DNA of 63,872 nucleotides, counting the filler, from Reclinomonas americana ATCC 50394 (Eukaryota), in assembly GCA_048213135.1 (NCBI GenBank). It is 8 parts of 8 records of this genome, joined end to end, with 100 filler letters (N's around TTAATTAATTAA, not from the genome) between each part and the next. Parts side by side here need not be neighbours in the genome. Positions count along the whole stretch, not along the records: positions 1 to 27,036 come from AFZH01020241.1; positions 27,137 to 31,995 come from AFZH01020244.1; positions 32,096 to 36,422 come from AFZH01020245.1; positions 36,523 to 45,281 come from AFZH01020246.1; positions 45,382 to 48,477 come from AFZH01020247.1; positions 48,578 to 56,296 come from AFZH01020249.1; positions 56,397 to 62,081 come from AFZH01020251.1; 1 more part is not named here. One strand, given 5' to 3'. A program made the translations under genes and the position numbers. This document shows, one piece after another, positions 289 to 61,262 of this stretch (position 1 is the stretch's first letter; each line of letters starts with the position of its first letter). The notes under the pieces are model-generated. The model had not been told where the DNA came from. It worked only from the letters and a program-made list of their open reading frames with translations, and did not search any database.

Positions 289-3200
289 TCAGTTGTCCAC
301 TCCCTCGTCTTCCTCCTGATCATCATCGTCGTCGTCGTCGTCGCTGAGCACGATAAAGTCTTCGAGGTCAGCGTACGTGTCGACTCCCACCGCCATGCCA
401 CGTGCCGCATCCTCACGCAGCACCCGGTCAATGTACGCGTTCCGACTGCGTGCCAACGACAGCGACTGCTTCCGTTGTGCGACACGGCGTCGCTTCCGTG
501 GTCTCTCATCATCGTCGCCATCGTTGTCTTCTTCCACTTCCTCCTCTCCCTCCTCTTCCTCTTCATCGGTCTCCGAAGCCGACGCACTGTCCTCATCCAC
601 GTCCTCACCATCGAGACGCACAACCCTCTTCCGCTCGCCGCCCACACACAGCGTCTGCAGTGAGGCGTTGTCTTCCAGCGCACTCAGCATTCGCGACAAG
701 GACTGTGGCACACGATCACCGAGAGCCTGCCGCCACCTTGTCACCACACGCTGCACCTGCAGACACAGACGCTGCGCCGTGACGATGAGCTGCCGAATGC
801 GACCAGCGACTCCCGCAGCAGCAGCAGCACGCTGCCGATGTCGCACACGCAACGCCTTGCTGCTCGTGTCAGCGTCTGGGAATCGCGCTGCAACCCATTG
901 GGCGAGCCACTTGACAAGACCCGCCACTGGAGTCATGCACTGGAGCCACACACGCACTTGTGGCACACGCTCCGATCGCGGTGCGGAGCGCAGCTGACTG
1001 CGCGCCAGACCAAAGAGCCGGCCACCGAACCGTGCAACTCGTGCGGCACTCGAAGCATCAGCCAGACCCGCGCGCAACACGCGTCGCATACGTGTCACGC
1101 ACCACTGCACCTCTCGTGAGTCGCCGCAGTCGCCAGCATGTTGTACCAAGCGATCCAGACACAGTACGGCAAGCGGGACGCGACAGCGCGCACTCACAGA
1201 ACAACCAGTGGTGACAGTCACCACCTCCCCACCCTTGTCCTCCTCCTCTTCCTCCTCTTCATCCTCCTCATCATCATCCTCCTCCTCGTCTGCGTGTCCA
1301 TCACCGTTCCCACCAACTGGGTCACCTTCCATCATCATCATCATCTCCAGCGGTGGCATCATCATCATCATCATCATTGGCGGCGCAGGCACCGGAACCA
1401 TCGCTACATCACCATTTTGCACTTGTGGCCTCTCCTCCACACTTCGCTCTTCGTCGTCGAGCCCACGACCACGACCACCGCACACCGCCACCACCATGGT
1501 CTCCAACACACTCCTCCGCAATGCACGGTCGTCAGCAGCGAGTGCATACAGACAACCGTACGCAGCCGTCAGCACCGAGGGTGGAGCGTCACCACCAAAC
1601 TGCTGGCAAAAGTGCCACAAGACGTCAGCCGGCAACTGCAGAGCGTCACGACACTGCGTCCAGGTGCTGCTTTGTGCCATCAGCGACAGCGCCTGCGTGT
1701 ACAAGACAAAGACGCGCGGCCGTGTGCTGCGTGCGACCTCGTGGTGCAGACACCAGGTGACGGCGCACAAGACCTGCTTGGAGGCAGTCGATTGTGTGGT
1801 ACCTGCGGCCGCCAGAATCACCTCTGCGCGTGCCTGCGATCTGCGCACTTATCAGTCAACGAGACGAAAACGGTGTTTCCCTATTGCATTCCAACGCAAC
1901 TCCTCGTTCTCCATGGTTTGTGACGTGCTGCGGCACTCGGCAAACGGAAGCGGCAACGAGTTGTCTCCCGCCTCGCGCAGCGCCAGTGGCGGTGCAGCAC
2001 CAGTGGATGAACGGAGTCGAGCGCACAGCGCCTGTAACAGGAACTCGCGCAAGTTTTCCATGTCGGCATTCTGTGCATTGGTGGCGGCGGCGGTAGCTGC
2101 GGCCGTGTCACTGCCGCTACGCAAGAACGGCGGCAACACCACGTATTGTGGCGTCCGCTTCCGAAACACGTTGTGCGACCACTGAAGTGGCACACGCTGT
2201 ATGCAAACAAAACACCCTCCGAGCGTCAGTCAACAGACATCATTGTGTTGTCCCGCCACGCACACGTCACCTGCCACACGGCCGCCGACTCCAGACAAAG
2301 TGCACGCACCAACACACCAGTCAGGCTCCAGATGCTGATGTGCGGATCAGAGGCCTGACAGCGAAGGAACTCCACGAGGCAGCCGAGTGCGACTGGCGGT
2401 GGAACCTGCTGGCGAAGTGCATCCACCAGCATGCCCCACATGTAGCGAACAGTGGCCGCACTCTGTTGCACCATCTGCCGCATGGCACCGTTCATGTCGA
2501 TCTCGGCAACACCATCCACCATCGGCAGCACGTCGGCGAACTTGTTGACCTTCCACAACTCGGCCACGAGCGCAAAGAGGCTCGTCAACGACGGAATCCA
2601 CTCGTTCCGCGGCAGTGCCTCGTCCGACTCCACCACGCCCACAATCAGTGCACAGAGCGTATGCTGCAGCAGGCACAAACGGGTGGCGGTGCGGATGCTC
2701 GGAAAGAGCGGGTCGGTGGAAAACAGGGTGGCCGCTAGACGACTGGGCGACGAGAACAGTGCACGCAGATCGTCGATCCATGCACGCGCTCCTGCGGCAC
2801 GACCATTTGTTCAGCAACGACGGCCAAGTGACTGTGATTGCGGAGACAACGCAACTGTGTGACTCGTCCGCCAGTGAGTATTGCAACGCAGTGCCGACCA
2901 GGAGCGGAAGCGATTCGACAAGAGTCACCGCTGGCCACGACGTGTGAGTGATTCGCGCGACACATTCGACAGCACACCATGCATACACAAACACAACACC
3001 TCCTCGATTCGTGCAGTGGAAACACTTGTCGAGGTCGAGGATGCGAATGCCCTCGTCGCCAGTGGCATCCACAGTGAACAGGGCCTCGATACGCTGGCCG
3101 AGCCACTCGGCGGCAATGCGACGCCAGCGAGAGTGCGCCTCATCCTTTTCCTCGGTTCCACGTCTCTGTAGGCATTGAGCGAGTCCAGTGTACACTTGCC

Positions 3201-59600: not shown

Positions 59601-61262
59601 AGTTTTGGGCGTTCTCGAGAGCATGAGCAACTTCATAGAGGTGAGTGTGTCGGTGTGTTGTTTCAGTATCCTTCCGATTGTTATGTGCGTGGTACCTGGC
59701 TCGACTTTGACGTGGATGTCACCATCAGAAAAGTGGTCTTCGGGGAGCTGAGCTGTTGGATGCCGTCGAGAAGCCACTGATTATGATTGACGAACGTGGT
59801 TACTCTCAGGCGCGTGTGAAACTGTGTGTTTGCTAATTCGCGCCATTGAAAGCTGGCTCACGAATACTGCTGTGGCTTGGATGGGTAGGAATCAGCAAAG
59901 TCGCAGAAGGGAGGCACTCCTAATGCTCTTCTGCCACACGTCATGCAGGCCGTGCAGGCTCTCCACGGCTGTCCAGACCTGCTGGCCACTCTGCTTCGGG
60001 ACGGCTGCCTTTCGCAGGCGGAGATTGCAAGTGCCGCCGTGTGGTGCAGTAAAACAGGTTTGGCTGCTTGTGCTCGCGGCTTTGTTGCTTACGTGTGCTG
60101 AGAAATGAGTGAACAGCCCTAAGGGATATGGAGATGGTGAAGAAAGAGGAGGAGAGGGAGGATGAGCAAGAAGAAGATGACGACAGCGAGAATGTGGAAG
60201 ATGACGCGAAGAGAAAGAAGGTATGCCCGACGCTCTTCAGTGAGATACGAGGTACGTCTCAATACTGCGTGGCTTGTGTTTCACAGCGCCGCAAGATTGA
60301 TCCTGCGAAGTTAAGCATCAACGAGCAATTGATGCTGGCGAGATTGCTTGTTGCGTGTTCTTTGTATCGCCGACATTGCTTTCATAAACTCCTCACTCAC
60401 TCCCCCCCCATGCGTCACACTTGAGAGCAGGGTGGTAACAAGAAGAGGATTCTGGTGAAGGCATTCGGTCTCATGGCATCCGTGGTGATGGAATCTACAG
60501 TCCTCCATCATCAGCGAGTTCTGTTCCAACTTGCCTGTGACGACTGCGGCATACCATCGAAGGGACCGGGCTTTCCATCATTCGCAGTCATGGCTGCATC
60601 TAGCAAGAGTCTTGCCAAAAGTGCCAGGAATGCACGCGGCACGACGCCCAAGTCAGTTGAGGGTGTGCTCGAGAGCGTGAGCGATTTCGTCGAGGTGAGT
60701 GTCAGTTTGTTCACATCCGCTTGTGTTGTGTCTGGCAACTGACCGAGCTTCCATCGCGTGCACGTGGAACCATTAGAAGAGCGGACTTCGAGAAGCTGCA
60801 CTGGTGGATGCTGTCGAGAGACCACTGATAACGATTGACGAGCGTGGTTATTCTGAGGCATGTCGACCGTGATTGTGTGTGCAGCTGCTTCGGTTTTGTT
60901 AATTCACTTATTTGTGTCGCGGGTGACAGGATTCAGCAAAAACGACGCATAAGAATAGCATTCCAAATTTTCTCCTGCCATTCGTCAAACAGGCCACGTA
61001 TCTGCTTCACAACTGTCCTGGCCTGCTGGCCACTCTGCTTCGAGACGGTTGTCTTTCAAAGGCGGAGATTGCGCGTGCCGGTGAGTGCTCTAAATGCAAC
61101 AATGTGGGCGCATCTGCTGTTTTTGCATGTCATGCCAACATCAACACTTACGAGCATGGTGCAGTGCTGAGTGACGAGAAGCCGGTGAAAATGGAGGTGG
61201 TGAAGAAAGAGGAGAAGGAGGACGAGGAGGAGGAGGAGGAGGAGGAAGACGAGGACATGTAG
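55759..61262 (+). CDS. Unrecognised tandem-module protein, copy B (4 modules starting 57143, 58230, 59239, 60287), apparently complete
   Basis: First exon 55759-56098 (MAARRPPPPPPR...TAKK, phase 1) joins in phase across the gap to exon 56484-56585, then follows the same exon series as copy A. Stop TAG at 61260-61262. Confidence 0.78.

Follow-up and report, generated by a model that had tools for sequence, protein, structure and literature searches.

We are highly confident that, in the 63,872-nucleotide (nt) stretch of DNA from Reclinomonas americana ATCC 50394 analysed here (the window; GenBank assembly GCA_048213135.1), sites with the sequence GTTGCGT mark the true 5' ends of short GT-AG introns of the ordinary kind (median 68 nt) and constitute a second major class of splice donor, with the consensus A/GUUGCGU (a slash marks the cut throughout) and a rule on the last base of the exon, position -1. 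Their excess is far beyond chance within this window: GTTGCGT occurs 48 times compared with a mean of 14.6 over 100 shuffles, none of which reached 48, and the base at -1 of the 48 copies is T in 22, A in 14, C in nine and G in three. Seven copies fall outside predicted genes; of those inside predicted gene spans, 36 are in the sense orientation and five in the antisense. Raw counts of the hexamer GTGCGT are inflated by a (GTGC)n microsatellite at 56115-56152 (+).

The window has a G+C content of ~58% and is made up of eight contigs, the joins between them consisting of 44 N, TTAATTAATTAA and a further 44 N (27037-27136 and six further spacers). Introns were predicted using a purpose-written, small generalised hidden Markov model, which provided three catalogues: a motif-blind round in which the donor signal was "GT" only (141 introns), a self-trained single-matrix round with one position matrix (193 introns, median 68-69 nt), and a two-component round with two intron-side components and shared exon columns (215 introns). 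Donors with G at +5 were classed as ordinary and those matching GTT[GAT][ACT]G as shifted. A link between -1 and the intron side cannot arise from any of the three gene models themselves, and the two-component model is unable to build in a rule at -1 as its exon columns are shared. GTTGCGT was the commonest donor heptamer in the motif-blind catalogue (15/141), and the shifted class accounted for 24/141, 42/193 and 55/215 of the predicted donors in the three catalogues (~17-26%) and was present in 11 of the 14 predicted gene spans. An original prediction for this window had listed 37 sites individually, or 46 with the nine sites of a module array, and the motif was found at the base given for all 30 of its GTTGCG coordinates (19 +, 11 -), for GTTGAGT at 20886, for GTTTCGT at 25787 and 26128, and for GTTGTGT at 20473 and 35197; GTTACGT is also present at 3846, on the - strand and not the + strand. 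Its exceptions were likewise found, i.e., G/GTTGCGT at 33362 (-), AAT/GTGAGT at 14883 and GAT/GTGCGT at 26310. As donors, 19 of the 37 listed sites were chosen by the motif-blind model and 30 by the single-matrix model; five of the seven missed by the latter were recovered with two components, and the two-component model chose 43 of the 46 sites, missing 7204, 9704 and 57218.

The form of the donor depended on the base at -1 in all three catalogues, as the original prediction had proposed, shifted donors following almost exclusively exons that do not end in G. In the motif-blind catalogue 59 ordinary donors had G at -1 and 16 did not, against 0 and 24 of the shifted donors (Fisher p = 1e-12); the equivalent counts were 107 and 16 against 1 and 41 for the single-matrix catalogue (p = 2e-24), and 123 and 12 against 2 and 53 for the two-component catalogue (p = 1e-32). 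Put the other way, shifted donors made up 24/69 (35%) of those after a non-G exon end in the motif-blind catalogue and 41/66 and 53/72 (62-74%) in the refined catalogues, while two-component donors that were neither ordinary nor shifted came after G in 18 of 25 cases. The base at -1 in the shifted class (A 20, T 8, C 4, G 1; n = 33) was often A, like that at -2 in the ordinary class (A in 46/107), which agrees with what had been claimed, and synonymous sites told the same story: at the 14 phase-0 shifted introns the third codon base at -1 was A in 10 and T in four, with neither G nor C, where usage would lead one to expect 2.3 A, 4.6 C, 2.2 T and 4.9 G, A being the rarest third codon base of the predicted coding sequence (10%). 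Because the phase-0 third base departs from synonymous usage in this way, A is selected and G avoided at -1.

On the intron side the shifted motif is rigid: conservation is 82% or more at each of seven positions. All of 33 shifted donors have T at +3 and G at +6, by class definition, and 31/33 have T at +7; the expected displacement of the conserved +5 G to +6 was borne out in the shifted class. Donors of the form GT-N-GCG had T as the extra base in 18/18 cases (motif-blind) and 44/45 cases (two-component), the hexamers GTTGCG, GTGGCG and GTCGCG occurring 103, 93 and 82 times, respectively, in the window. The GCGU at +4 to +7 of shifted donors is one of the two commonest sequences at +3 to +6 of ordinary donors. 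However, the idea that shifted donors are simply the ordinary hexamers plus a T did not hold, as their core is almost only GCG (GC 28, TC 6, GT 2, GA 1, AC 1; n = 38), which differs (p = 6e-6) from the ordinary core (GC 27, GA 28; n = 107).

The exact cut was addressed by transcript, paralogue and homology evidence. The protein P0151, derived from an expressed sequence tag (EST) with the source label Reclinomonas americana, matches the exons of a serine carboxypeptidase (S10) gene at essentially 100% identity, which places the origin of the window in that organism or one very closely related to it. It fixes five junctions (G/GTGAGG, G/GTGTGC, G/GTGAGT, A/GTTGCGT and G/GTGCGC), all five of which were recovered by the single-matrix gene model, a 7-nt micro-exon included. 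P0151 reads the A/GTTGCGT at 26614 as GESYAG/HYV with no extra residue, placing the cut exactly before GTTGCGT; because of this reading the 26614 intron is cut directly at its GT, and P0151 thereby gives us one shifted intron that is absent from the mature transcript. Conserved residues had been said to fix the cut at two sites: this stood for GESYAG/HY at 26614, while ALK/YG in a LysM domain at 7204 is plausible by eye, was chosen by no model, and had no Pfam match when the two LysM half-domains flanking it were searched. In addition, an alignment of the nine diverged paralogous modules showed (C or T)TT/GTTGCGT at the first intron in 9/9, as predicted, although these introns have diverged in sequence and, in the eight copies predicted, are 64-111 nt long. 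Overall, the GT-only gene finder, the P0151 junction, the paralogues and the sense-strand bias agree with the earlier claim that the sites are donors.

The junctions might nonetheless be misplaced, e.g., the true site might be a GC donor three bases in (GTT/GCGT), the class might be a prediction artefact, or a diverged U12-like spliceosome might be at work, all of which together we regard as very improbable. GC-AG introns do exist in the window, and a 3-nt shift keeps the reading frame, so that frame logic is silent here; P0151, though, lacks an extra residue at 26614, the GTTTCGT sites have no GC at +4, no distinct branch-site motif was seen, and the acceptors are as in ordinary introns. In the profile alignment of a DNA-PKcs gene, two shifted junctions were gap-free, two had a one-residue deletion nearby and two fell in unaligned regions, and the cut at GT (+1) scored at least as well as the GC cut three bases in (+4) at 5/5 testable sites, by small margins. 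At 33724 the profile scored a non-GT cut 3 nt upstream best (9.3).

Away from the donor, shifted and ordinary introns share their length (medians 68.5 and 67 nt), base composition and a C-(G or A)-CAG acceptor. Shifted introns had C at -3 in 33/38, AG in 38/38 and YTNAY within -45 to -5 in 33/38, the figures for ordinary introns being 95/107, 107/107 and 88/107, and no 4- to 6-mer of the last 45 nt remained specific to one class after correction (best p = 0.002 over 256-2203 tests). Shifted introns therefore have the GT 5' end, YAG acceptor and branch-like element of U2-type GT-AG introns. U12-type introns carry a rigid, characteristic donor and a rigid branch-site motif near the acceptor. A minor-spliceosome (U12-type) class was rejected, since shifted introns have a different donor motif, lack a separate branch-site motif and share their acceptors with ordinary introns. 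A euglenid-like folded intron, with an internal complement to the donor, was also rejected: GCAAC, ACGC and similar sequences were equally frequent in both classes, and there was no folding bias. The uniform length (56-79 nt) and invariant 5' heptamer of shifted introns could also reflect common descent, with mobile 'introner' copies carrying GTTGCGT at their end and inserting regardless of the exon base. This family was likewise rejected and we consider it highly improbable, since the interiors of shifted introns are unrelated, resembling one another no more than ordinary interiors do, and contain no enriched k-mers: the mean best pairwise score was 18.6 bits among shifted introns compared with 20.5 bits between shifted and ordinary introns, the only matches with E<0.01 were 13-22 nt long and crossed classes, ordinary introns have the same lengths, and selection for A at synonymous -1 sites argues for an acting signal.

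As to how shifted sites might be recognised, both classes can be written in one 8-base frame, A-G-(G or U)-U-G-C-G-U. An early recogniser, most likely the 5' end of U1 small nuclear RNA (snRNA) with a sequence that here is probably not the textbook one, would bind at the same place of this frame in both classes, and the cut would fall just before the frame's first GU, i.e., after 'AG' if the third slot is G (ordinary) and after 'A' if it is U (shifted). We put even chances on a single recognition frame with the cut displaced one base upstream, and, by a little more than that, favour as the best explanation as a whole a second donor class read in a common frame by a diverged U1-type recogniser.

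Alternatively, U1 (and U6) could pair in the normal register with the extra U at +2 or +3 looped out, which seems improbable to us. The motif is formally GU + U + GCGU, and the bulged register is validated in man, with 68 predicted sites, 54 of them after curation, reported by Tan et al. 2016 (PMC4856993). With the exon side in register, however, G would be expected at -1, and it was found in only 0/24, 1/42 and 2/55 shifted donors, A being selected instead; shifted donors thus do not show the preference for G at -1 that marks bulge +2/+3 sites. Moreover, a looped-out base need not be U, yet the extra base was U in all but one of the GT-N-GCG donors, and the bulge has a worse predicted energy with a human-type U1 (+2.2 kcal/mol) than the shifted register. 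One shifted frame is favoured over a looped-out U because -1 behaves like the ordinary -2, A is selected at synonymous sites and the extra base is always T.

A further possibility is that there are two recognisers, a second U1 variant having a 5' end exactly complementary to GUUGCGU, each class then being served by a U1 of its own, without any shifted frame common to both. The seven rigid positions and near-exclusive GCG are what full complementarity to a dedicated RNA would produce, conventional U1 is predicted not to bind shifted sites, and there are reported precedents in a diplonemid whose two U1 genes have different 5' ends (PMC12621601) and in Physarum, with standard and modified U1 (preprint 10.1101/2022.06.08.495308). 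We nevertheless think this unlikely, as the motifs differ at only one of the eight frame positions, for which one RNA tolerating one mismatch is simpler, and the near-absence of G at -1 is likewise unpredicted by it.

Several observations weigh against a single frame read by U1, or against the donor class itself. Only one of ~55 shifted junctions is supported by a transcript, the others being gene models of one 64-kb window, and the DNA-PKcs profile separates the alternative cuts by just 0.2-4.9 bits. G at -1 (1-2 of 42-55) is rarer than the 17% G at the ordinary -2, which a simple shift does not explain, and U6 pairing would also need to accommodate the displaced G. Pairing energies, computed with a human-type U1 5' end (sequence from Tan et al. 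2016, PMC4856993) from which the organism's own U1 may differ, were 0.0 kcal/mol for the consensus shifted site in the shifted register, +0.9 for a two-pair canonical register and +2.2 for the bulge; the shifted register was the best of the three, none being stabilising. A GAG core would pair better with this U1 (-5.2), yet GCG outnumbers GAG by 28:1 among shifted donors, whereas ordinary donors use both equally. The mean energy of shifted sites was -1.5, compared with -2.7 for decoy GTs and -6.9 for ordinary donors (area under the curve 0.32). Textbook U1 sliding by one base is thus insufficient, because with a human-type U1 shifted sites pair worse than decoys. The +1-shifted U1 register put forward in the original prediction stood in its A at -1, extra T and +6 G, and failed in that conventional U1 is predicted not to pair.

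Fitting 64 hypothetical U1 5' ends by duplex energy identified no U1, as GC-rich variants bind decoys too, and indicated no more than that the textbook end fails for the shifted class; an snRNA search of the window found none at the Rfam gathering threshold or at E<=1. It is reasonable to suppose, as the original prediction did, an altered U1, U6 or spliceosome rule in this organism, the shifted class being carried either by a different U1 5' end, by a second U1, or by other factors (U5, U6, proteins). More specifically, we suggest, with slightly less than even confidence, that in this jakobid-like organism about one intron in four is routinely cut a base upstream of the usual position in the frame. 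Either a single diverged U1, whose 5' end matches GGUGCGU and accepts U in the third slot, or an additional U1 that matches GUUGCGU would bring this about.

Comparable donors are known elsewhere, to different degrees. The human +1-shifted U1 register is described as rare and atypical (Roca and Krainer 2009, as summarised in PMC4856993 and PMC9311317), and shifted and bulged registers are established in man at a small proportion of sites (Tan et al. 2016, PMC4856993). Like human +1-shifted sites, those in the window have GU and an extra base, G at +6 rather than +5, and a last exon base other than G that acts as -2; unlike those rare sites, they form 17-26% of predicted donors, have a GCG core and are predicted not to pair with textbook U1. 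They resemble human bulge +2/+3 sites (PMC4856993) in having one extra nucleotide between GU and the downstream consensus, and differ from bulge registers, in which exon-side pairing is kept, in avoiding G at -1 and in that the extra base is U. Animals and plants are reported to have two donor classes of equal spacing, with -1 and +5 in a seesaw relation (PMC11732430); there too exons without G at -1 carry a strict intron-side motif, whereas the exon-independent class in the window is displaced by one base. Entamoeba (GUUUGU, U1 ACAAAC) and Mastigamoeba (GUACGU, U1 ACGUAC) likewise have an unusual, strongly conserved donor with which textbook U1 cannot pair (preprint 10.1101/2022.06.08.495308), a likeness that suggests a changed U1 5' end may also exist in this organism, although each of those has one transformed consensus and here two consensus forms coexist in the same genes. 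A changed U1 need not follow from C at +4 by itself, because Thecamonas and Micromonas are reported in the same preprint to keep standard U1 despite it. The jakobid Andalucia godoyi is described as intron-poor (PMC7050145).

Genes were placed by Pfam scans of stop-free open reading frames (ORFs) together with a profile built from 39 full-length homologues, and are listed with all splice sites in Table 1. In the S10 gene, P0151 residues 171-194 differ from 26527-26552 (-) by one residue (L for F), and after HYV the protein runs in a different frame from the S10-like genomic frame, which looks like an indel error near the EST end, or an allele. The 7-nt micro-exon GTTTCAG at 26890-26896 (-) is needed to read P0151 and was recovered by the gene model; another micro-exon of 6 nt in the same gene (26129-26134, -) is predicted only. 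The DNA-PKcs exons run on in order across the spacer at 31996-32095 and end at 27369, at profile position ~1789 of 4047; the contig after it carries the S10 gene, so that the window lacks the C-terminal half of DNA-PKcs. At 30615-30620 (-) the DNA-PKcs profile prefers a GC-AG intron with the donor aag/GCGAGT (66.6 bits) over a GT at 30611 (58.2 bits), the latter being the choice of the GT-only gene models, and a tRNA-Ile gene (anticodon TAT; 30322-30394, -) lies on the same strand within a predicted 158-nt DNA-PKcs intron (30294-30451), among the longest predicted outside the repeat modules. The IQ-repeat gene (36523-45062, -) has many IQ calmodulin-binding motifs over at least 10 ORFs and 20 predicted introns, seven of the shifted class. 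The module array (49100-61300, +) comprises nine diverged copies, each with 4-5 short introns, a G+C content of ~0.52 and acidic low-complexity tails; near 54120, 59770 and 60800 (+) the homologous donor is GAG/GCATGT or CAG/GCGCGT where other copies have GT. A Pfam scan of module ORFs at 49129-52603 (it covered ORFs up to 52.6 kb) gave no family match, and a word-index protein search with a CEP76-like exon found no homologue; with the S10 exon it returned one protein, P0151.

Table 1. Splice donors and genes in the window. "Predicted", donor in the gene-finder catalogues; "motif-blind", also chosen when only GT was known to the model.
Feature	Position	Strand	Basis
Shifted donor gga/GTTGCGT, S10 gene, 62-nt intron	26608..26614	-	P0151 GESYAG/HYV; all three catalogues
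Ordinary comparator ctg/GTGAGGG	26969..26975	-	P0151 junction; predicted
Micro-exon GTTTCAG (7 nt), then ordinary donor cag/GTGTGC	26890..26896	-	P0151 DTG-FS-YAS; gene model
Ordinary comparator atg/GTGAGTG	26772..26778	-	P0151 junction GVAD/DMY
Ordinary comparator gcg/GTGCGCT	26520..26526	-	Fits P0151 in its shifted frame; predicted
Shifted donor gga/GTTGCGT	1894..1900	-	Predicted; motif-blind
Shifted donor aca/GTTGCGT	2849..2855	-	Predicted; motif-blind
Shifted donor caa/GTTACGT	3840..3846	-	Predicted
Shifted donor aga/GTTTCGT	4086..4092	-	Predicted
Originally predicted donor caa/GTTGCGG (IALK/YG)	7204..7210	+	Motif present; plausible by eye; in no model; no Pfam support
Shifted donor gtc/GTTGCGT	7526..7532	+	Predicted
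Shifted donor ctt/GTTGCGT	8480..8486	+	Predicted; motif-blind
Shifted donor aac/GTTGCGC	9300..9306	+	Predicted
Originally predicted donor ttt/GTTGCGT	9704..9710	+	Motif present; models chose in-frame GT 9695, 9 nt upstream, without G at +5
Shifted donor tct/GTTGCGT	10130..10136	+	Two-component only; single-matrix chose 10121
Shifted donor gtt/GTTGCGT	10547..10553	+	Two-component; single-matrix chose 10544
Shifted donor caa/GTTGCGA, CEP76-like gene	11156..11162	+	Predicted; motif-blind; exon end at Pfam CEP76 peptidase-like profile position 80
Shifted donor gga/GTTGCGT	11747..11753	+	Predicted; motif-blind
Shifted donor agt/GTTGCGT	12064..12070	+	Predicted
Shifted donor gac/GTTGCGT	14485..14491	+	Two-component only
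Shifted donor cga/GTTGCGC	15993..15999	+	Predicted
Shifted donor gcc/GTTGCGA	16631..16637	+	Predicted
Shifted donor gct/GTTGCGT	17396..17402	+	Predicted; motif-blind
Shifted donor gct/GTTTCGG	18092..18098	+	Predicted
Shifted donor gca/GTTGCGT	19026..19032	+	Predicted; motif-blind
Shifted donor cga/GTTGCGT	19316..19322	+	Predicted
Shifted donor cat/GTTGCGT	19599..19605	+	Predicted
Shifted donor cca/GTTGCGT	20198..20204	+	Two-component only
Shifted donor gca/GTTGTGT	20473..20479	+	Predicted; motif-blind
Shifted donor cat/GTTGCGG	20723..20729	+	Predicted; motif-blind
Shifted donor cca/GTTGAGT, sole GAG-core example	20886..20892	+	Predicted; motif-blind
Shifted donor cga/GTTGCGT	21205..21211	+	Predicted
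Shifted donor cga/GTTGCGT	21978..21984	+	Predicted; motif-blind
Shifted donor aca/GTTTCGT, S10 gene (PPLCYN/FQN)	25781..25787	-	Predicted
Shifted donor cct/GTTTCGT, after predicted 6-nt exon	26122..26128	-	Predicted
Shifted donor aca/GTTGCGT, S10 gene	26203..26209	-	Predicted; motif-blind
Shifted donor att/GTTGCGT, DNA-PKcs	28090..28096	-	Predicted; profile: +1 cut 3.1 vs GC cut at +4 1.8
Shifted donor cgc/GTTGCGT, DNA-PKcs	31540..31546	-	Predicted; profile 46.1 vs 45.9 (+4 cut)
Exception atg/GTTGCGT, shifted donor after G	33356..33362	-	Predicted; in insert relative to DNA-PKcs profile, homology uninformative
Shifted donor ggt/GTTGCGT	33476..33482	-	Two-component only
Shifted donor att/GTTGCGT, DNA-PKcs	33718..33724	-	Predicted; gap-free; profile 6.4 vs 3.5; non-GT cut 3 nt upstream 9.3
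Shifted donor tca/GTTGCGT	33969..33975	-	Two-component only
Shifted donor tca/GTTGCGA, DNA-PKcs	34299..34305	-	Predicted; motif-blind; profile 54.3 vs 53.5
Shifted donor caa/GTTGTGT, DNA-PKcs	35191..35197	-	Predicted; gap-free; profile 21.0 vs 16.1
Shifted donor gca/GTTGCGT, IQ-repeat gene	37181..37187	-	Predicted; motif-blind
Shifted donor tcc/GTTGCGT	38602..38608	-	Motif-blind and two-component; not single-matrix
Shifted donor cga/GTTGCGT	39642..39648	-	Predicted; motif-blind
Shifted donor caa/GTTTCGT	40334..40340	-	Predicted
Shifted donor gct/GTTGCGT	40758..40764	-	Predicted; motif-blind
Shifted donor tcc/GTTGCGT	41519..41525	-	Predicted
Shifted donor cga/GTTTCGT	43531..43537	-	Predicted
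Module 1 first-intron donor ctt/GTTGCGT	49327..49333	+	Paralogue alignment; predicted
Module 2 donor ctt/GTTGCGT	50504..50510	+	Paralogue alignment; predicted
Module 3 donor ctt/GTTGCGT	51612..51618	+	Paralogue alignment; predicted
Module 4 donor ttt/GTTGCGT	52636..52642	+	Paralogue alignment; predicted
Shifted donor aaa/GTTGCGA inside module 4	53227..53233	+	Predicted
Module 5 donor ctt/GTTGCGT	53679..53685	+	Paralogue alignment; predicted
Module 6 donor ctt/GTTGCGT	57218..57224	+	Paralogue alignment; outside every predicted gene
Module 7 donor ctt/GTTGCGT	58293..58299	+	Paralogue alignment; predicted
Module 8 donor ctt/GTTGCGT	59302..59308	+	Paralogue alignment; predicted
Module 9 donor ctt/GTTGCGT	60350..60356	+	Paralogue alignment; predicted
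CEP76-like gene	~8.0-13.0 kb	+	
Potassium-channel gene	13-14.4 kb	-	
Serine carboxypeptidase (S10) gene	24.9-27.0 kb	-	
DNA-PKcs gene, N-terminal ~1,790 profile positions	27.2-35.7 kb	-	
Very long IQ-repeat gene	36.5-45 kb	-	
Tandem array, nine paralogous modules, ~1 kb each	49-61 kb	+	

Among the papers listed, a literature search found none linking GUUGCGU/GTTGCG to splicing, none describing this donor class and nothing relevant on splice sites or introns in Reclinomonas. Our results point to an unusual mode of splice-site recognition. In practical terms, gene finders with a single donor matrix misplace shifted junctions, given that 7/37 listed sites were missed and five of these were regained with two components. 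For a deep-branching eukaryote, the finding also yields concrete predictions on the 5' end of U1 and possibly on the U6 box. If the proposed cut one base upstream is true, the organism would offer a natural example of genome-wide uncoupling between recognition of the 5' splice site and selection of the bond to be cleaved, strictly governed by the last exon base, and a displaced donor serving as a routine second class would show that the register between recognition and cleavage can become a regular, evolvable feature.

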